Below are positions 1-7,052 of a stretch of DNA of 7,052 bases, in pieces (position 1 is the first letter of the stretch; each line of letters begins with the position of its first letter). Source of the stretch: a virus (Duplodnaviria > Heunggongvirae > Uroviricota > Caudoviricetes); IMG/VR virus record IMGVR_UViG_2778261417_000006; one strand, given 5' to 3'. Position numbers and translations under genes: made by a program. Under the pieces are notes generated by a model, which was given only the letters and a program-made list of their open reading frames with translations, searched no databases and was not told the origin of the DNA.

Positions 1-130
1 GAATCTGAGGCAGCACCTGGCACGGCTGGGACGGAAGTCGCTGTCGTTCTCAAAATCGGTGGAGCTGCATGACAAAGTCATCGGGCATTATCTGAACATA
101 AAACACTATCAGTAAGTTGGAGTCATTACC
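1..130 (+). mobile_element. IS1 right end, partial and window-truncated (3' end of insB plus terminal inverted repeat)
   Basis: Positions 2-115 translate to [37 protein letters not shown]-stop, the InsB C-terminus as I recall it. The element ends ...CTATCAGTAAGTTGGAGTCATTACC at 130, matching the IS1 terminal repeat. Bases 1-130 are the exact reverse complement of 6923-7052. Confidence 0.93.
2..115 (+). CDS. insB: IS1 transposase InsB, C-terminal fragment (gene continues upstream of the window)
   Basis: Open frame from the window edge to TAA at 113-115; the translation matches the InsB C-terminus from memory. Confidence 0.85.
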
Positions 131-747
131 GGGATCGCGTTCTTAATATCAATGAAACCGCTGATGTATGGTCTTATGCTTACGGTAATAATTTGCTAAC
201 TCTGTCATCAATATATAACCGAAGAATAATGGTTATCTGCCTGGTGTTTGGTTGCCGACAGCAGGAGGCGAGGCTATCCACCTGGGACGAATGGGATTTA
301 AAAAACTGGGTATGGACAGTCCCAAAAGAGCACAGCAAAAACAAGGAGGCTATAGTAAGGCCTGTTCCTGACGGAATAAAACAATGGATCGTTAATCTTT
401 ACGCAGAAACAAAAAATCGCGGTTATGTTGTCGGTTGTGCTTTGCAAAGGGCGACAATAACAGGGGCTGCAAACAGAATATGCAGGCGTCTTGGTCATGA
501 TACTAATGGCTTGTGGTGCATACATGATTTCAGGCGCACATTTTCCACTACGCTTAATGATATGGGGGCGGATCCTTATATTGTCGAACTTCTTTTAGGT
601 CATAAAGTGAAAGGGGTTGCTGGTGTTTACAATAAAAGCAGGCATATAAAGAAAAAACTTGAGGTGCTTAATATGTGGGTTAATTACCTTAATACGATAG
701 CAGGATTTAACAACAACGTTATCGAGCTTAATAAAGAGGTGGTGTGA
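131..747 (+). pseudogene. int: Tyrosine recombinase (P4-type phage integrase), C-terminal catalytic domain only; 5' part interrupted by IS1
   Basis: The frame of the 193..747 ORF stays open back across the IS1 junction at 130/131, with no native start. The translation carries catalytic-domain hallmarks: ARLSTWDEWDL...WTVPKEHSKNK, box II HDFRRTFSTTL, and LLGH...GVAGVY with the presumed catalytic Tyr. About 205 aa are present against roughly 400 expected. Confidence 0.88.
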
Positions 748-748
748 T

Positions 749-1006
749 ATGGCAATTTATTCTCTTGTTGATGAAAACGATTTGCGCACAATGAAGGACA
801 TTGATCGGTTCATTCGTGAAAAAGAGTGCATAGCACTTACCACGCTGGCAAACTCAACACGCTGGAAAATGGAGCAGGCAGGTAAATTCCCGCGACGTAT
901 CAAGATCGGTGAACGTGCTGCAGGGTATCGACTTTCAGAGGTTCAGGCATGGATCCGTGGTGAGTGGCATCCTGGATGGAAACCTGGAAAAACAAAACAG
1001 CAATAA
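749..1006 (+). CDS. alpA: AlpA-family phage transcriptional regulator / excisionase-like DNA-binding protein
   Basis: 85 aa. The ATG lies 1 nt after the int stop and has an AGAGG-type SD. The motif IALTTLANSTRWKMEQAGKFPRRIKIGERAAGYRLSEVQAWI fits the AlpA/Xis helix-turn-helix signature (GxFP...W...ev..W). Confidence 0.8.
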   Translation: MAIYSLVDENDLRTMKDIDRFIREKECIALTTLANSTRWKMEQAGKFPRRIKIGERAAGYRLSEVQAWIRGEWHPGWKPGKTKQQ

Positions 1007-1018
1007 CCAGTAAATAAT

Positions 1019-1042
1019 GCCCCTCATCACGAGGGGTTTTTT
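1019..1042 (+). terminator. Rho-independent terminator after alpA
   Basis: Stem CCCCTC (1020-1025), loop ATCAC, stem GAGGGG (1031-1036), then TTTTTT (1037-1042). Confidence 0.75.
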
Positions 1043-1062
1043 GTCTATAAGGTAAAAACGCG

Positions 1063-1641
1063 ATGAATAAAAATATTGCCGTGACGGGCAAGGGGTACGC
1101 TCGTCCAGTGAAAAAATTCTGCGATATTCGTGATCTCGTCGTTCTGCGCTTTGATAGTGTGAACGTTCGTGTGGTGTATCTGAACGGCGATCCGTGGTTT
1201 GTTGCAAAAGATGTTTGTGCTGCGCTGGAACTAACCAATTCGCGTACGGCGTTGCAGATGCTTGATGATGATGAAAAGGGAGTAAATTTAACTTACACCC
1301 CAGGAGGAAATCAGAATATGAGAATTATCTCTGAGTCAGGTTTCTACAAACTAATAGCCCGCAGCCGCAAAGCAACGACGCCTGGCACATTTGCTCATCG
1401 TTTCAGTAACTGGGTATTCAGAAATGTGATACCAGGTATCAGAAAAACGGGGACTTATGGTATCCCGTGGGGTGCATTACAGGATTTTTCCCGCCGTAAA
1501 GAGCAATATCAAATAAGTGCCAGCGAGAAGGGGAGGGAGCTACAGGCATGTAAGCGCAAAAAGCGTGAGCTGGAGGAAGAAGAAAAAACGCTGATACGTG
1601 AATATCAGCCTGAGTTTTACTTTGGTAACCGCATTCAGTGA
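1063..1641 (+). CDS. Bro-N domain protein (phage antirepressor-like) with charged C-terminal tail
   Basis: 192 aa. Residues about 35-140 (VRVVYLNGDPWFVAKDVCAALELTNSRTALQMLDDDEKGV...TPGGNQNMRIISESGFYKLIARSRKATTPGTFAHRFSNWVFRNVIPGIRKTGTY) match the Bro-N consensus closely. The C-terminus is K/R/E-rich and looks coiled-coil-like. Confidence 0.85.
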   Translation: MNKNIAVTGKGYARPVKKFCDIRDLVVLRFDSVNVRVVYLNGDPWFVAKDVCAALELTNSRTALQMLDDDEKGVNLTYTPGGNQNMRIISESGFYKLIARSRKATTPGTFAHRFSNWVFRNVIPGIRKTGTYGIPWGALQDFSRRKEQYQISASEKGRELQACKRKKRELEEEEKTLIREYQPEFYFGNRIQ

Positions 1642-1650
1642 CAAAACAAA

Positions 1651-1671
1651 GGCGACCGCAAAAGGGTCGCC
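1651..1671 (-). terminator. Hairpin with T-run on the minus strand; candidate terminator for the leftward unit, convergent with the Bro-N gene
   Basis: GGCGACC (1651-1657), loop GCAAAAG, GGTCGCC (1665-1671). The + strand A-rich tract just upstream (1641-1650) reads as a U-run on the minus strand. Confidence 0.5.
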
Positions 1672-1737
1672 AGTGGGAACAAGGGAAAACAAAAGCATCA
1701 CCAACAATGCCACATTTGCGGCTGGTGGGCAATGTGA

Positions 1738-1917
1738 TCAGTCAGATTTGGTTCGTTCCAAGGTTTGCAACGAGAGCTTTTTCCTGTGCTCTTTAAGGAA
1801 TTTCTCAAGAGCAAACGAACAAGGTGCGAATCTTTCTGATTCATGTTCATGCGCTATATTTTTGCGTCGTCTCTTACGAGTTGGTGATGGTGTTTTGGTT
1901 GATTCTGTGTCGCTCAT
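1738..1917 (-). CDS. Hypothetical small basic protein, 59 aa (absent from the supplied ORF track)
   Basis: Hand translation of the minus strand gives MSDTESTKTPSPTRKRRRKNIAHEHESERFAPCSFALEKFLKEHRKKLSLQTLERTKSD-stop. It sits 57 bp downstream of the 101-aa minus-strand gene, has an AGGA about 8 nt upstream, and the minus-oriented hairpin lies about 70 bp beyond its stop. Confidence 0.4.
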   Translation of the reverse strand: MSDTESTKTPSPTRKRRRKNIAHEHESERFAPCSFALEKFLKEHRKKLSLQTLERTKSD

Positions 1918-1974
1918 GGTGCTGTCCTGTAAAGCAATGCGCCTGCGTTCCTCAAACTATGGCGCTGATATTGG

Positions 1975-2280
1975 CTATTCATGCTCTTTGACCTTGCGTC
2001 GCTGGAGTTCTTCACGCGCGACGGTGACGAGTTGCCCGATCTCCTCGGCTGCTTTGATGCCGATTTGTTCGACCTTAGCCAGGGCATCCAGTGACGACAC
2101 AAGGGGATTTTCTCCGCTGCCTTCTGCTTGGCGGCGGGCTATTTCTCCGCGCATGGCGGTTACGATAAATCCGGCATTGCTTTCACCGTCCAGCTTAACG
2201 GATTCCATCCCTTGCATAACATCTAGTGGGACTCTGACAGTTGTCAGTTGTGATTTTGCGTTTTTGTTAGCCGTTGCCAT
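1975..2280 (-). CDS. Hypothetical 101-aa protein; candidate DNA-binding regulator of the element (possibly ribbon-helix-helix-like)
   Basis: AGGAG SD 8 nt upstream of the ATG. It is transcribed divergently from the rightward operon across a palindromic operator region. The N-terminal segment TTVRVPLDVMQGMESVKL is compatible with a beta-strand plus helix RHH fold, but the family is not recognised with certainty. Confidence 0.5.
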   Translation of the reverse strand: MATANKNAKSQLTTVRVPLDVMQGMESVKLDGESNAGFIVTAMRGEIARRQAEGSGENPLVSSLDALAKVEQIGIKAAEEIGQLVTVAREELQRRKVKEHE

Positions 2281-2301
2281 TTCTGAAACTCCTAATCATC
2301 G

Positions 2302-2379
2302 GTGTGTTTCAGTATACACAAAAAAAGAAATACAAAAAGCCTTGACGTGTGTTTCATGCGCTCATAACATGAAACACAC
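2302..2379. promoter_or_regulatory. Divergent promoter/operator region
   Basis: Perfect inverted repeat GTGTGTTTCATG (2347-2358) / CATGAAACACAC (2368-2379) with a 9-bp spacer. A third half-site GTGTGTTTCA sits at 2302-2311. Candidate + promoter: -35 TTGACG (2342-2347), 17 bp, -10 TAACAT (2365-2370). Candidate minus promoter: -10 TATACT (complement of 2311-2316). Confidence 0.6.
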
Positions 2380-2470
2380 CGAAAGGATTGTTGAAATACA
2401 AAGAGCAACGCCCCGCAGTGCTGGGAACACATACGGGGCGTCTAACCAACAACGTAAACTAGGAGCCGTT

Positions 2471-2668
2471 ATGGTTGCTGTAAATCATATACCACACCTT
2501 GTACACACACAAACGGCCTTTGTGTGGCGTTTTCTGGCACTGAGTGCCGGAGAATCTCAAATCATCCACGTAACCGCCTGGACGGAACGCGAAGCGCGTA
2601 GCCGTTGCCCGTCCGGTTGTGTTGCTGTATTCGCTGCAAAAATCCGCCAGGGAGTGAGTCATGCTTAA
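2471..2668 (+). CDS. Hypothetical protein, 65 aa; likely first gene of the rightward operon
   Basis: AGGAG SD 5 nt upstream of ATG 2471. Its stop overlaps the start of the next ORF by 8 nt. It is the 3' end of the long 1598..2668 stop-free frame in the ORF track. Confidence 0.45.
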   Translation: MVAVNHIPHLVHTQTAFVWRFLALSAGESQIIHVTAWTEREARSRCPSGCVAVFAAKIRQGVSHA

Positions 2669-2846
2669 AACCTTCCGTGTATTTGCCCGAGCTGTTAACC
2701 CAATAGGCCACACAATTGGTATCGCTCAGAATGTGAAGGCTGTTAATGTTCAGACGGCTATTGCTGCGGTGAGAAGCGAATCATCAGAATATGGCTTATC
2801 ACAAGTCATTATTTCAGCAGTGTATGAATTAAAAGAGGTGCATTAA
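2661..2846 (+). CDS. Hypothetical protein, 61 aa
   Basis: GGGAG SD; stop TAA overlaps the next ATG as TAATG (translational coupling). Confidence 0.5.
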   Translation: MLKTFRVFARAVNPIGHTIGIAQNVKAVNVQTAIAAVRSESSEYGLSQVIISAVYELKEVH

Positions 2847-3037
2847 TGCAGGAAATTACATTACACGAAGCCGCTGAACGTGCGCACCAGACAGAAATTA
2901 TTTGCCGCCTTCTTGAGGTATACCCGAACAAAATTACAGATGCTGATATATCCGCACTGGCGAGCCTACTGGCGCGTCTTTCGGGAAGTGTCGCTAGTTT
3001 TTTGATTGAGGAAGAAAGTAAGCTGGTGGGGGATTAA
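2846..3037 (+). CDS. Hypothetical acidic protein, 63 aa
   Basis: AGAGG SD; stop TAA is immediately followed by the next ATG (coupled). Confidence 0.5.
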   Translation: MQEITLHEAAERAHQTEIICRLLEVYPNKITDADISALASLLARLSGSVASFLIEEESKLVGD

Positions 3038-3259
3038 ATGAATACAGAACGGGAAGTCTTTTTTAAATTGTTAGCATGTGCAGAAAGTTCATTAACTTTA
3101 AATAATTCAGCAAAAGCAATATTAAATATGTGGCTTGATTGCATAAATGACAATGAAGATGCAAATATTGCTTATGGCCTGTTGTCACTTATTGATGAAT
3201 CAGCAGAAAAACTCAATGACGCAATAAATAGTGCCCTGCTATCAAATAAGTCGAGTTAA
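3038..3259 (+). CDS. Hypothetical acidic protein, 73 aa, encoded in a markedly AT-rich segment (candidate moron)
   Basis: GGGGGA SD 4 nt upstream. By eye this ORF is about one-third GC, well below the flanking genes. Confidence 0.5.
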   Translation: MNTEREVFFKLLACAESSLTLNNSAKAILNMWLDCINDNEDANIAYGLLSLIDESAEKLNDAINSALLSNKSS

Positions 3260-3276
3260 GTCGAGGAATAAATAAT

Positions 3277-3576
3277 ATGGAAATGAAAAATTCTGGCTTT
3301 ATTGCCAGCGGCCCCGCTCGACCTGAATTTATGAACGGCGATATTTACCGCGATAAATACGGCGGCACGGTAACGATTAAAGGCGTGGCAGAACGGCGCA
3401 TCACTTACCGCCGTGAGGGGTATAGCTATGACTGCGTGATGCCTGTTTATCAGTTCCGGCGTGATTTTTCCCTGGTATATGCCGCACCCCGCAGTAAGCC
3501 CATCAGCAGGGAAAAAGCGTGGGGAAATATCCAGAAAATGAAAACCATGATTAACGGATTCAGAGGTAAAAAATGA
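3277..3576 (+). CDS. Hypothetical protein, 99 aa; immediately upstream of and overlapping the primase-like gene
   Basis: GAGGA SD; ATGA start/stop overlap with the 584-aa ORF. Confidence 0.55.
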   Translation: MEMKNSGFIASGPARPEFMNGDIYRDKYGGTVTIKGVAERRITYRREGYSYDCVMPVYQFRRDFSLVYAAPRSKPISREKAWGNIQKMKTMINGFRGKK

Positions 3577-5327
3577 AACTGGCACCGAACGTAAAACAGC
3601 AGTCACGCGGCATAAAACACAAAGGAACAGAAGTAATTATTTTTGCGGGTAGTGATGCCTGGGCACACGCGAAACAATGGCAGGAACATGATGCGCGTAT
3701 GGCCGGAGATAATGAGCCTCCTGTGTGGCTTGGGGAGCAGCAGCTATCCGAACTGGATAATCTGCAAATTGTGCCGGAAGGCCGAAAATCAGCACGCATA
3801 TACAGGGCCGGATATCTTGCGCCTGTAATGATAAAGGCGATTGGTCAGAAGCTGGCGGCAGCAGGCGTACAGGATGCAAATTTTTATCCTGAGGGTATGC
3901 ACGGCCAGGAGGTGCAGAACTGGCGCGAATATCTGGCCCGTGAACGCCAGAATCTTTCTGATGGTCTGGTCATTGAGCTTCCGGTAAAGCAAAAGGCGCA
4001 ACTTTCGCAGATGGCGGACAGTGAGCGCGCGCAGTTGCTTGCCGATCGCTTTGATGGCGTTTGCGTACATCCTGAAAGTGAAATCGTTCACGTATGGCGC
4101 GGCGGGGTATGGTGTCCGGTCAGCACAATGGAACTTAGCCGCGAAATGGTGGCGATCTATTCAGAGCACAGGGCCACTTTCAGCAAGCGCGTAATCAATA
4201 ACGCCGTGGAAGCGTTAAAAGTTATTGCCGAACCAATGGGCGAGCCGTCTGGCGATTTGCTGCCGTTCGCCAATGGTGCGCTTGACCTGAAAACGGGGGA
4301 ATTTTCCCCGCACACGCCGGAGAACTGGATCACCACGCACAACGGCATTGAGTACACGCCACCAGCACCAGGGGAGAACATCCGCGATAACGCGCCAAAC
4401 TTTCATAAATGGCTTGAGCACGCAGCCGGAAAAGACCCGCGCAAGATGATGCGTATATGTGCCGCGCTGTACATGATTATGGCGAACCGGTACGACTGGC
4501 AGATGTTTATTGAGGCCACCGGAGACGGCGGGAGCGGTAAAAGTACATTCACACACATAGCCAGCCTTCTGGCAGGGAAACAGAACACGGTAAGCGCTGA
4601 AATGACATCGCTTGATGATGCTGGTGGACGTGCGCAGGTTGTCGGGAGTCGTCTTATCGTCCTGGCTGACCAGCCGAAATATACAGGCGAAGGAACGGGC
4701 ATCAAGAAAATCACAGGCGGCGACCCCGTGGAAATTAACCCGAAATATGAAAAGCGTTTCACGGCGGTAATCAGGGCGGTGGTGCTGGCGACCAACAACA
4801 ACCCGATGATATTCACCGAACGGGCCGGAGGTGTGGCACGTCGTCGCGTGATTTTCCGTTTCGACAATATCGTCAGTGAGGCCGAAAAAGACAGGGAGCT
4901 ACCGGAAAAGATTGCGGCTGAAATCCCCGTTATTATCCGCCGATTGCTGGCGAACTTTACCGACCCTGAGAAGGCACGGGCTTTACTACTGGAACAGCGT
5001 GACGGTGATGAAGCACTGGCAATAAAGCAACAGACGGATCCGGTTATTGAGTTTTGCCAGTTCCTGAATTTTCTGGAGGAAGCGCGCGGCCTGATGATGG
5101 GTGGCGGTGGTGATTCAGTGAAGTACACGACCAGGAACAGCCTTTACCGCGTCTATCTGGCGTTTATGGCATACGCGGGCAGGAGCAAACCGCTAAACGT
5201 GGCTGAGTTCAGCAAGGCCATGAAGCCAGCGGCGAAAGTTTACGGGCATGAATATATTACGCGAAAAGTTAAGGGAGTAACGCAGACCAACGCAATTACA
5301 ACAGACGATTGCGACGCGTTTTTATAA
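3573..5327 (+). CDS. Replication protein: P4-family primase C-terminal domain / D5-like SF3 helicase
   Basis: 584 aa. Walker A GDGGSGKST is encoded at 4521-4547. The block LIVLADQP...KKITGGDPVEINPKYEKRFTAVIRAVVLATNNNPMIFTERAGGVARRRVIFRF resembles the phage/plasmid primase P4-family C-terminal signature. GAGG SD 6 nt upstream. Confidence 0.82.
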   Translation: MKLAPNVKQQSRGIKHKGTEVIIFAGSDAWAHAKQWQEHDARMAGDNEPPVWLGEQQLSELDNLQIVPEGRKSARIYRAGYLAPVMIKAIGQKLAAAGVQDANFYPEGMHGQEVQNWREYLARERQNLSDGLVIELPVKQKAQLSQMADSERAQLLADRFDGVCVHPESEIVHVWRGGVWCPVSTMELSREMVAIYSEHRATFSKRVINNAVEALKVIAEPMGEPSGDLLPFANGALDLKTGEFSPHTPENWITTHNGIEYTPPAPGENIRDNAPNFHKWLEHAAGKDPRKMMRICAALYMIMANRYDWQMFIEATGDGGSGKSTFTHIASLLAGKQNTVSAEMTSLDDAGGRAQVVGSRLIVLADQPKYTGEGTGIKKITGGDPVEINPKYEKRFTAVIRAVVLATNNNPMIFTERAGGVARRRVIFRFDNIVSEAEKDRELPEKIAAEIPVIIRRLLANFTDPEKARALLLEQRDGDEALAIKQQTDPVIEFCQFLNFLEEARGLMMGGGGDSVKYTTRNSLYRVYLAFMAYAGRSKPLNVAEFSKAMKPAAKVYGHEYITRKVKGVTQTNAITTDDCDAFL

Positions 5328-5340
5328 TTTTTTGTAAAAG

Positions 5341-5564
5341 CCATCTACCCCATCTACCTGAACGAAATAAACGCATATTATTCAACATGATAAGTGGGTA
5401 TAGGGCTAGGTAGAAGGCTAATAAAAGCTCTCTACCTCTTCTACCTGATTTTATCAGTTTCAGGTAGCAGGGTAGACGGCAGGTAGAGGAGTCAAAAAAG
5501 CTATCTACCCGCTGAAAGCGGCGCCATTACTGACATGATGAGCATTCGGGTAGATGGGTAGAGG
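5341..5564. repeat. Iteron cluster; candidate origin of replication
   Basis: Eleven copies of the pentamer CTACC/GGTAG in 224 bp. Tandem CCATCTACC x2 at 5341-5358 is mirrored by GGGTAGATGGGTAGAGG at 5548-5564. Other copies: 5409-5414, 5431-5436, 5440-5445, 5463-5467, 5471-5475, 5482-5486, 5504-5509. An AT-rich core lies at 5359-5394. Confidence 0.65.
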
Positions 5565-5613
5565 GGGGGAGGCACAACTAAAAACTTTTTAAACGAGGGG
5601 GGGGTGAAAATAA

Positions 5614-5928
5614 ATGCGCATACATAAAAATCACTTAACAAACATGCCAGCCGAAAACATGAATCAGGGGCGACAAATGACCAAAATTCGCAGAGACAGA
5701 ACACAGGCAAAATATAAAGCGTTAGACATGACAGAGCTTTCCTTAAAGGTGGCAATCAAAGCGATAGACCACCACACACGGGCAGGATACGCGAAGGAAC
5801 ATCCCGACCTGATAAGCGCATTCATGACCACAGCAGCGGCAAACTTTGCCACGCTGACAGAACGGGAGATTGCCGAAGCGGAACAGGTGACAACCATCAA
5901 TGTTAAAACCGGAGAGCAGACAGCATGA
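5614..5928 (+). CDS. Hypothetical protein (104 aa from ATG 5614; alternative start at 5677 gives 83 aa)
   Basis: Its stop overlaps the SSB start (ATGA). The 5677 start has an AGGGG SD at 6-nt spacing; the 5614 start follows a G8 tract. Confidence 0.55.
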   Translation: MRIHKNHLTNMPAENMNQGRQMTKIRRDRTQAKYKALDMTELSLKVAIKAIDHHTRAGYAKEHPDLISAFMTTAAANFATLTEREIAEAEQVTTINVKTGEQTA

Positions 5929-6347
5929 CAGCACAGATAGCGGCTTACGGGCGGCTGGTGGCTGACCCGCAGTTAAAGACCACCAGCAAAGGGACACAAA
6001 TGGCGATGGCGAGTATGGCGGTTCCCCTGCCGTGCAGCCAGGCAGATGACGGAACGGCGACGATGTGGTTATCCGTCCTGGCGTTTGGCAGACAGGCCGA
6101 CGCACTGGCAAAACACCACAAAGGCGAACTGGTGAGCGTGGCGGGTAACATGCAGGTAAGCCAGTGGACAGGCCAGAACGGCGAAACGCGGCGGGGCTGG
6201 CAGGTTATCGCAGACAGCGTAATCAGTGCGCGAACGGCGCGACCGGGCGGCAAAAAAGGCCAGCAGGGGCAGGCCACTGACGCACTGAACAGGGCAAAAC
6301 AACAGTCGGGGAATGATGATCCGTACGGCGATAATATACCGTTTTAA
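5925..6347 (+). CDS. ssb: Single-stranded DNA-binding protein (SSB family)
   Basis: 140 aa. The OB-fold region aligns with E. coli SSB by eye (GRL.ADP...W..V.AFG..A......KG..V...G......W). The C-terminus ends ...DDPYGDNIPF, resembling the conserved SSB tail DDDIPF. Confidence 0.85.
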   Translation: MTAQIAAYGRLVADPQLKTTSKGTQMAMASMAVPLPCSQADDGTATMWLSVLAFGRQADALAKHHKGELVSVAGNMQVSQWTGQNGETRRGWQVIADSVISARTARPGGKKGQQGQATDALNRAKQQSGNDDPYGDNIPF

Positions 6348-6364
6348 ATTCTGCAAACAAAAAG

Positions 6365-6393
6365 ATGCCGGAAAAAAATAGATTTTCCGGCAT
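6365..6393. terminator. Perfect 11-bp-arm hairpin downstream of ssb
   Basis: ATGCCGGAAAA (6365-6375), 7-nt loop, TTTTCCGGCAT (6383-6393). The U-run is on the minus-strand side; termination on the + strand is plausible but weaker. Confidence 0.5.
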
Positions 6394-6564
6394 GCTACAT
6401 AAATCCCGACCAAAGGAAGTAAATACATTAACACGAATTATCAGCACTGAAGTTGTTACGGCATATTTTATACAACATTGCACTTGGTTGCATGTGTTCG
6501 CATAGCAGACATCGGTAATAGAATATATTCACAATTATTTGTAATGAATGTAAAGAGGATGAGT

Positions 6565-6927
6565 ATGGTTGATTTATATTCGCCTACACAGCTTGTGCAG
6601 GTGGCTAATGCTGAAGATGTGCAAAAAAAATTAAATGCGTTGTTTACCAGTTTGTTTTTCACTCGCTCGGTAATGTTTGAATCGAGAGACATTATTCTTG
6701 ATACGATCGACGATCCAAATATCCCGATCGCGGCGTTTTGCTCTCCTATGGTGGGCAGTAAAGTTTCACGAGATGAGGGATACGAATCAAAAACAATTCG
6801 TCCAGGTTATATGAAGCCGAAAAGCAGCATTGATCCAAATAAGTTAGCTGTGCGCCCTGCTGGTGTGTCACCTGAGCAATACAATGCTTTTGGGGCGCGT
6901 AATATTAAAGTTAAACAGGCGAGGTAA
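6565..6927 (+). pseudogene. Lambda gpE-like major capsid protein, N-terminal about 120 codons only; truncated by IS1
   Basis: The translation from 6565 (MVDLYSPTQLVQVANAEDVQKKLNALFTSLFFTRS...FCSPMVGSKVSRDEGYESKTIRPGYMKPK...) resembles the lambda E N-terminus as I recall it (LFLRLFFRES...YVSPIVSGEVIRSRGG...TPGYVKPK). AAGAGG SD 6 nt upstream. The stop TAA (6925-6927) is supplied by the IS1 terminal sequence GGTAATGA. An alternative start at 6559 (MSMVDLY...) has no SD spacing. Confidence 0.65.
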
Positions 6928-7052
6928 TGACTCCAACTTACTGATAGTGTTTTATGTTCAGATAATGCCCGATGACTTTGTCATGCAGCTCCACCGATTT
7001 TGAGAACGACAGCGACTTCCGTCCCAGCCGTGCCAGGTGCTGCCTCAGATTC
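6923..7052 (-). mobile_element. IS1 right end, partial and window-truncated, inverted relative to the copy at 1-130
   Basis: Exact reverse complement of 1-130; begins GGTAATGACTCCAACTTACTGATAG. Confidence 0.93.
6938..7051 (-). CDS. insB: IS1 transposase InsB, C-terminal fragment (gene continues beyond the window)
   Basis: Mirror image of 2-115; the stop is the complement of 6938-6940. Confidence 0.85.

Follow-up and report, generated by a model that had tools for sequence, protein, structure and literature searches.

A 7-kb contig bounded by inverted IS1 ends is very probably the core of a helper-embedded satellite of a catalogued portal-site group

The DNA analyzed here is a 7,052-bp stretch recorded in IMG/VR as IMGVR_UViG_2778261417_000006 (the window, meaning the whole stretch), which an exact-protein look-up with its truncated capsid product identified as the entire contig NOSH01000066.1 of the draft assembly GCA_002521985.1. 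We consider it very likely, with a probability of roughly 0.9, that the window corresponds to the middle 6.8 kb of a helper-embedded satellite (HES, or HE-PICI, where PICI stands for phage-inducible chromosomal island) of the site group B:Phage_portal_2:241, in which the integrase and capsid genes have each been hit by IS1. A preliminary description, made from the sequence letters, had called an integrase fragment, AlpA, a Bro-N protein, a divergent regulator, an operon of small open reading frames (ORFs), a P4-alpha-type helicase, a single-stranded DNA-binding protein (SSB) and a capsid fragment. Profile searches against Pfam and NCBIfam bear out these gene calls.

The window opens with the last 130 nt of an IS1 copy (positions 1–130, + strand in the transposase sense; insB end and terminal inverted repeat) and closes with the last 130 nt of a second copy (6923–7052, − strand), which is inverted relative to the first; both are also contig ends. 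These two arms form a perfect inverted repeat of 130 nt. Each is the transposase-distal end of IS1, pointing inward, with one mismatch to the annotated IS1A copies of an O121 strain (locus L002). Immediately inside the left arm lies the C-terminal catalytic fragment of a tyrosine integrase (131–747, +; Pfam Phage_integrase over 133–747, E = 4.5e-15). It starts at about codon 209 of 413, and the arm-binding and core-binding domains are absent from the window. The full 413-aa integrase of strain EC93 (locus L001) contains Arm-DNA-bind_3, Phage_int_M and Phage_integrase (Pfam), and window position 131 aligns to L001 position 15001. The break falls at codon 211/212, between the arm/core-binding part and the catalytic part of the protein. 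The fragment is followed by alpA, encoding a helix-turn-helix (HTH) protein of the excisionase/activator type (749–1006, +; Pfam Phage_AlpA, E = 5.4e-14), and a terminator scan places a hairpin with a T run, resembling an intrinsic terminator, 3′ of alpA (1019–1037, +). A Q-modified polymerase is expected to read through such a terminator, as is established in lambda biology. The Bro zone holds a gene for a Bro-N/anti-repressor-like protein (1063–1641, +; Pfam Bro-N, E = 4.9e-20), which matches phrog_2593 “anti-repressor” over its full length (E = 3.8e-85).

The rightward operon appears to be governed by a divergent control region at 2301–2393 (+). To its left is a gene for a YlcI/YnfO-family protein (1975–2280, −; NCBIfam), a candidate ribbon-helix-helix repressor of that operon. 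The region contains a sigma-70-like promoter (−35 at 2342–2347, −10 at 2365–2370), which is overlapped by an inverted repeat (2333–2358/2368–2393) with repeated GTGTTTCA half-sites. The positions of the promoter and half-sites are kept in 11capE (Eco567.11.E:Phage_cap_E:80), the type helper-embedded satellite, from Escherichia coli NRG857c (NC_017634.1), where the half-site reads TGTATATCA. This arrangement suggests a repressor-operator switch for the operon, which comprises an Icd-like small protein as its first gene (2471–2668, +; NCBIfam phage_ICD_like, E = 1.2e-17), three small ORFs of 61, 63 and 73 aa (2661–3259, +; PHROG 3672, 1478 and 2196, with function unassigned there, and annotated as coding sequences in EC93), a DUF4222 protein whose gene overlaps the start of the helicase gene (3277–3576, +; Pfam DUF4222, E = 9.3e-24) and the helicase itself. 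PADLOC found no defence-system match among the window proteins of uncharacterised or regulatory function and the helicase. On the other side of the YlcI/YnfO gene, downstream of it, a 59-aa basic ORF (1738–1917, −) is included in public gene calls for this contig and absent from the RefSeq annotation of intact copies; it has no family match, and 11capE shows no conservation of this region.

A hairpin that the leader of the Icd-like operon can form (2408–2441) recurs in 11capE, where one change is compensatory. The folding z-score of this hairpin reaches only −0.9, it has no C4 or isrK match in Rfam, and after considering it as a functional RNA we make no RNA claim for it. The placement of an Icd-like gene downstream of this hairpin recalls the immunity RNA loci of P1 and P4. 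Across the whole window at E ≤ 1, Rfam returned no C4, isrK or CI RNA and only a chance match to SR1 antisense.

The last gene of the operon encodes a 584-aa replication initiator/helicase of the P4-alpha family (3573–5327, +; Pfam D5_N, DUF5906 and Pox_D5). The protein is laid out as a Toprim-like head (residues 1–135), D5_N, an SF3 helicase (DUF5906) and a C-terminal P4-alpha-type origin-binding domain; it matches the SF3 primase-helicase structure 7OLA (E = 3.7e-15), and its C-terminus matches the origin-binding domain of P4 alpha, 1KA8 (E = 8.2e-6). The name given to it earlier, a P4-family primase/helicase, holds for the helicase. No primase domain is detectable in the protein by sequence, and the match to TIGR01613 (“P4-family primase C-terminal”, NCBIfam) barely passes. 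In the predicted structure, the N-terminal 135 aa adopt a Toprim-like fold from which the usual acidic motifs are, by eye, missing. On this model, the region named “primase” looks like a degenerated Toprim head, one that different types of helicase appear to exchange.

Directly 3′ of the helicase gene is an iteron-type origin (5344–5562), in which ten TCTACC hexamers form direct and inverted doublets that flank an AT-rich stretch. All 10 TCTACC hexamers of the window fall in this interval, where 1.4 would be expected by chance, and none of 200 shuffles reaches 10; the earlier proposal of an iteron origin is thereby supported. The same layout of direct doublets, AT-rich stretch and inverted doublets is kept at the homologous position in 11capE (L006 6050–6340). 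The repeat itself differs, being TCTACC in the window element and TGTTCACC-like in 11capE, and the initiators are 43% identical. We take the iteron TGTTCACC of 11capE to be the P4 type I iteron. A switched repeat together with a diverged initiator would look like what is expected of a cognate initiator-iteron pair. For satellite biologists, this makes a side point that overturns no current view: the iteron sequence changes together with the initiator while the layout of the origin stays. The origin is followed by a gene for an 83-aa hypothetical protein (5677–5928, +; phrog_1231; 70% identical to its 11capE homologue), which overlaps the start of the gene for SSB (5925–6347, +; Pfam SSB, E = 5.5e-16). 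The last feature before the right IS1 is the N-terminal 119 codons of a major capsid gene of the lambda E family (6565–6922, +; Pfam Phage_cap_E), which IS1 cuts at codon 119/120 of a gene that has 346 codons when intact (EC93, L001 21434–22474). Both int and the capsid gene are thus broken, as had been described, with a C-terminal Phage_integrase and an N-terminal Phage_cap_E fragment remaining.

The element had further been described as trimmed at both ends by inverted IS1 copies. The inverted IS1 ends are real; the trimming is not upheld. The ends of the window are assembly breaks within multi-copy IS1 and not demonstrated deletions, and, at least on the left, the trimmed appearance is an artefact of the contig ending inside a repeated element. 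If the left IS1 were a simple insertion with a 9-bp target-site duplication, putatively GGGATCGCG at 131–139 within int, the other side of the junction would encode int codons 1–211 followed by Gly and a stop codon. Indeed, this predicted 212-aa product, Int(1–211)+G, is present exactly among public proteins (WP_244588003.1, E. coli, on two contigs, the longest 8,450 bp). The fusion products expected from an 8-bp or a 10-bp duplication have no exact match in the protein collection. The existence of the exact fusion of the Int N-terminal half with IS1 argues that the left IS1 is a simple in situ insertion and that the N-terminal half of int was retained. On the right, an insertion in the capsid gene would be expected to carry the 9-bp duplication AACAGGCGA. 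The inner 6,792 bp are 100% identical to the intact copy in strain 20Y000092 (match H3), in agreement with the earlier statement that the core is intact, and because the core is sequence-identical to intact copies, the IS1 insertions are recent. The window therefore holds two genuine IS1 insertions, in int and in the capsid gene, with a contig-end effect on top. It illustrates how breaks in IS1 repeats can make a draft contig resemble a “trimmed” novel element, and how an exact look-up of the predicted IS-fusion protein can recover a missing junction.

It could be argued that the two inverted IS1 copies acted as a composite transposon and moved the 6.8-kb regulation and replication core elsewhere. 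An inverted IS1 pair does bracket the segment, the flanks beyond IS1 are not on the contig, and neither junction is present in any of the 5,426 complete E. coli genomes searched. A transposed composite, however, would be flanked by its duplication on the outer sides of the IS1 pair and would not produce a fusion of the kind described above, whereas the in situ product, which joins the N-terminal half of int to the other IS1 end with a 9-bp duplication around that one IS1, exists, and other duplication lengths were not found. We regard a transposed core as very unlikely.

Intact relatives reveal where the insertions occurred within a larger element. About 52 complete E. coli genomes carry at least 80% of the window at ∼99.9% identity (99.9–100% over the inner segment), and int with the attL region is found in 65 of the 5,426 complete genomes and at no place on plasmids. 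Among the records listed, int and attL are nearly always beside an annotated portal fragment. In EC93, PK13 and O121, the element separates the N- and C-terminal halves of a lambda-family portal gene (the cognate of lambda B) in a lambdoid prophage and shares the strand of the helper late genes. The att identity block AAGGCGAT occurs at L001 14168–14175 and 25067–25074, which gives an element of 10,899 bp, and the portal gene is broken at position 238/239 of Pfam Phage_portal_2. When rejoined at AAGGCGAT, the flanks match an uninterrupted portal gene over all 252 bp at 98–99% identity in 80 lambda-like phage records, which marks the element as a discrete insertion. The tRNA att site that had been anticipated for intact relatives is absent from them, the att site being inside the prophage portal gene. 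A doubled motif, GTGTATTGCAnTGTGTATTGC, is present in both arms, at L001 14305–14325 (∼132 bp after the attL block) and at 24972–24992 (∼80–100 bp before the attR block), in both cases beyond the part that the window covers.

Damage to int recurs among copies of the element. It takes the form of IS1 in the window, an IS3-family element in another copy (L005), IS1A in strain E41, an IS1-adjacent deletion in O121, and frameshifts and truncations. Only ∼7 of the 65 complete genomes are affected, which is compatible with ordinary decay. The L005 copy (GCA_024755885.1, positions 1–127) was considered as a sister copy with the same IS1 junction and rejected: its insertion belongs to the IS3 family and is located at window position 181, 50 bp further in than the IS1 of the window, and the two copies have an identical 184-aa ORF by coincidence. 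In O121 strain 201805972 (L002 11080–12100), IS1 is beside a truncated int and lacks a target duplication, pointing to a rearrangement or an adjacent deletion. Further IS1 copies with 9-bp duplications are found in this strain before the helicase gene and in the capsid gene.

To the right of the capsid gene, the late zone of the intact relatives encodes lambda-E-like and D-like head proteins and a Nu1-type small terminase subunit (TerS) beside a cos site. The satellite capsid protein and that of the helper type share 42% identity. A comparison of the satellite cos region (L001 23245–23425) with that of the helper (L001 10480–10705) shows 95% identity over ∼66 bp at cosN and its left flank, including GGGCGGCGACCT, and an unrelated cosB side. 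Directly downstream of cos, the satellite TerS is a full-length match to phrog_57, the Nu1 family; it is 37% identical to NohD of the helper, and the C-terminal half is better conserved. This pattern suggests that the satellite TerS may recruit the helper large terminase (TerL) to satellite DNA. In EC93, the helper’s own major capsid gene (L001 27544–28569) is annotated with an internal stop, and the embedded satellite capsid gene is intact. Between the last gene and attR are three tandem 54-bp repeats (L001 24506–24667), each of which carries a different palindrome at the same place (CCTGCAATGCAGG, CCCCCATTGGGGG and CCTCAATTTGAGG), with the stem kept despite changes on both sides.

Elements of this kind were described as HES or HE-PICIs by Tommasini, Mageeney and Williams (bioRxiv 10.1101/2022.07.18.500453; NAR Genom Bioinform 2023, PMC10111431). 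Their survey mapped 491 elements, which occupy 14 sites within genes cognate to lambda late genes. All integrases belong to a single clade, whose subclades follow the att site, and a doubled motif, tgTGTATTGCantgTGTATTGCa, has one copy in each attP arm, the upstream one lying ∼81 bp and the downstream one ∼132 bp from the centre (PMC10111431). The elements are organized in four zones: Integration (int, alpA), Bro, Replication (primase/DUF5906, SSB, origin) and Late (captured head and packaging genes) (PMC10111431). The intact relatives of the window have the portal site, the arm motif and the four zones, and their integrase is assigned by identity to catalogued members, the int gene of the window being 100% identical to that in CP015912.1 and CP011416.1, both catalogued as B:Phage_portal_2:241. 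The portion of Supplementary Table 1 (10.1101/2022.07.18.500453) used here contains at least three elements designated 11.B_Phage_portal_2_241 with the identity block “aaggcgat”, at CP011416.1 3698288–3709185, CP028192.1 4037383–4026485 and CP015912.1 4478746–4489644, which enclose our matches H24, H7 and H8, respectively. The source assembly of the window does not occur in the rows of the published tables that were examined; the survey pipeline rejected int regions cut off by contig ends.

These results revise two parts of the preliminary description. The gene combination it called unusual consists of genes that define HES zones, Bro-N the Bro zone, SSB and DUF5906 the Replication zone, and the capsid gene the Late zone. 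The suggestion that the element might match no described family does not hold either, as identical copies stand under 11.B_Phage_portal_2_241 in the portion of the catalogue just cited. The element type, its integration site and its gene layout were already published in 2022–2023, and there is accordingly little discovery value in the kind of element or in its layout. The placement among Gram-negative PICIs and P4-like satellites fared better: the core has no megablast match in 50,697 phage records, and only 5 of 72,556 plasmid records match it. The PICI model of SatelliteFinder requires int, a regulator such as alpA, a primase-replicase, a capsid-like gene and terS as core components and allows no tail, holin, portal or head-tail connector gene. 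An intact relative has 5 of the 5 components and no forbidden gene inside its borders; the window holds 4 of the 5, two of them truncated.

The presence of the capsid gene had led to the proposal of a capsid-encoding satellite or satellite/prophage hybrid, which would build its own capsids and stand outside described families. The window does encode a lambda-E-type capsid gene, and the intact relatives add a D-type decoration protein and a small terminase. However, ordinary PICIs also count a capsid-like gene and terS among their core markers, and between attL and attR of the intact relatives there is no gene for a portal protein, prohead protease, head-tail adaptor or connector, HNH protein or TerL, which are the markers of capsid-forming PICIs (cf-PICIs). 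A true cf-PICI that has the same replication module, in CP088587.1, has an entirely different, HK97-type late region, and the identical copies already in the examined part of the HES catalogue speak against a new family. Taken together, these observations make this proposal highly improbable.

The core could also be a fragment of an ordinary lambdoid or P2-like prophage, or a plasmid replicon, either of which the preliminary description had named as a finding that would count against a satellite. The element does sit in lambdoid prophages and carries homologues of lambda-family head and terminase proteins, and one “plasmid” in PLSDB matches the helicase and origin at 93.5%. Comparison with the phage records gave no megablast match for the core, and the element forms a separate insert that brings its own int, att sites and arm motifs, its site being empty in the 80 phage records. 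Of the five matching PLSDB records, the single full-length match is CP088587.1, a mislabelled chromosome fragment with a cf-PICI, and int has no place on plasmids. We therefore give almost no weight to either origin.

Several points weigh against assigning the window to the portal site group. The window itself holds no att site, cos, terS or helper sequence, and embedding in a portal gene is seen only in relatives. The contig that encodes Int(1–211)+G may belong to a genome other than that of the window, and the product predicted for the right IS1 junction, a 143-aa C-terminal capsid protein, occurs on 52 contigs and is not specific to this insertion. The induction data come from 11capE and not from the portal site group. 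Finally, no C4 or isrK immunity RNA was found in the window, though some members of the HES family have one.

Taking the window as the core of a portal-site HES, a life cycle can be proposed with 11capE as a guide. After mitomycin C treatment, the composite of helper and 11capE excises and replicates, and the satellite then excises by ∼2 h (Tommasini et al.). In a portal-site element, helper late transcription would enter int-alpA, and Int and AlpA would excise the satellite at AAGGCGAT, which would restore the portal gene. The YlcI/YnfO-type repressor, which is probably a ribbon-helix-helix protein, would control the rightward operon, and the last product of this operon, the P4-alpha-type helicase/initiator, would bind the downstream TCTACC iterons so that the excised circle replicates with the satellite’s own SSB. 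The late zone would supply E-like and D-like head proteins, and its TerS, beside a cos site with helper-like cosN and a private cosB, would steer the helper large terminase to satellite DNA.

Because its integrase is split, the copy in the window is not expected to excise, and with an interrupted capsid gene it is predicted to make no capsid protein. Should it still be embedded in a portal gene, the latter would not be restorable either. Its replication and regulation core, which is sequence-identical to intact copies, is undamaged. One may speculate that such an IS1-locked satellite is retained by the host as a device that disarms a lambdoid prophage, or that the IS1 pair might in time mobilise the replication core, acting as a composite transposon. 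If so, a non-excising satellite would split the helper portal gene permanently, such that the prophage never makes virions, and the intact core of repressor, helicase, origin and SSB could still become active on induction and amplify the locus where it sits. The finding that ∼7 of 65 genomes have int damage, which fits ordinary decay, weighs against a disarming device, and we consider this line of thought unlikely to be correct.

Comparison with named systems begins with P4, as the notion that the element is itself a P4-like satellite can be dismissed with near certainty: AlpA, an Icd-like gene, an alpha-family helicase with a related origin-binding domain (1KA8) and an iteron origin are indeed common to both, and the literature places the integrase in a wider PICI/P4 clade, but Pfam and PHROG searches find no psu, delta or sid-type genes, Rfam finds no C4/isrK-type CI RNA in the window, and the helper is lambdoid with a lambda-type cos and is not P2. 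P4-like satellites are defined by a psu/delta/sid capsid-size module, epsilon, a CI immunity RNA, an alpha primase-helicase and a P2-type helper; of these, the window element has only the alpha-type helicase and origin-binding domains. The primase part, in contrast to that of P4, seems on the structure prediction to be reduced here to the Toprim-like head of ∼135 aa, apparently without the catalytic acidic motifs.

The cf-PICIs (e.g., EcCIEDL933; Alqurainy et al.; de Sousa et al. 2023, PMC10085698) have the left half in common with the window element. They encode an HK97 capsid protein, protease, portal, head-closure, connector, HNH, TerS and TerL, whereas the element studied here has only the E-like and D-like proteins and TerS. 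The cf-PICI in CP088587.1 contains the same module of DUF4222, helicase, origin, hypothetical protein and SSB at 93.5% nucleotide identity, and its occurrence in both a cf-PICI and an HE-PICI fits the known sharing of modules between PICIs and cf-PICIs. The CP088587.1 record (L007, 32,560 bp) was deposited as a plasmid; it carries pntAB, mlc, clcB and mdtIJ in addition to the cf-PICI and is probably a misassigned chromosome fragment.

EcCICFT073, the prototype cos-type PICI of Gram-negative bacteria (Fillol-Salom 2018; 2019, PMC6739421), is alike in having int-alpA, a replication module with an origin and a lambdoid helper, as well as a cos site with a helper-like cosN and a different cosB, and in redirecting packaging at the small-terminase step. 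It differs in that it integrates by a chromosomal gene (att labelled phoQ in the HES supplementary files) and not in a prophage late gene. EcCICFT073 lacks terS and redirects packaging via Rpp, a small TerS-binding protein, whereas the portal-type element uses a full-length Nu1-family TerS. We had considered the satellite TerS as an Rpp homologue and rejected this, as it gives no solved-structure match by sequence and is instead a full TerS of the Nu1 family. The satellite TerS and Rpp may serve the same goal by different means.

The gene order of 11capE is the same as that of the portal-type element: int, alpA, YlcI/YnfO (−), Icd-like, small ORFs, DUF4222, helicase, origin, hypothetical protein, SSB, major capsid protein, decoration protein and an AlpA-like HTH protein. 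Synteny holds gene for gene except for the Bro-N gene and the right-end cargo genes. Identities to 11capE are 54% for Int, 67% for AlpA, 89% for YlcI/YnfO, 43% for the helicase, 79% for SSB, 99% for the major capsid protein, 99% for the gpD-like decoration protein and 100% for the second HTH protein. 11capE differs in that it sits in the helper capsid gene E and not in the portal gene, lacks Bro-N and has different iterons. At its right end, HEPN- and DUF262-domain genes (L006 9537–11253, minus strand) occupy the place where the portal-type element has the Nu1-type TerS. These two genes may be defence cargo. According to the HES paper, 11capE has no terS (PMC10111431), and from its gene content the portal site group appears to differ from 11capE in its packaging gear by having its own Nu1-type TerS.

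The closest counterparts are the catalogued portal-site HES. The copy in the window differs from them in that int and the capsid gene are interrupted by IS1 and that the contig includes neither the att sites nor the remainder of the late zone. The likeness extends to 99.9–100% identity over the 6.8-kb core, the common att block AAGGCGAT, the arm motif, the 10.9-kb size and the four zones.

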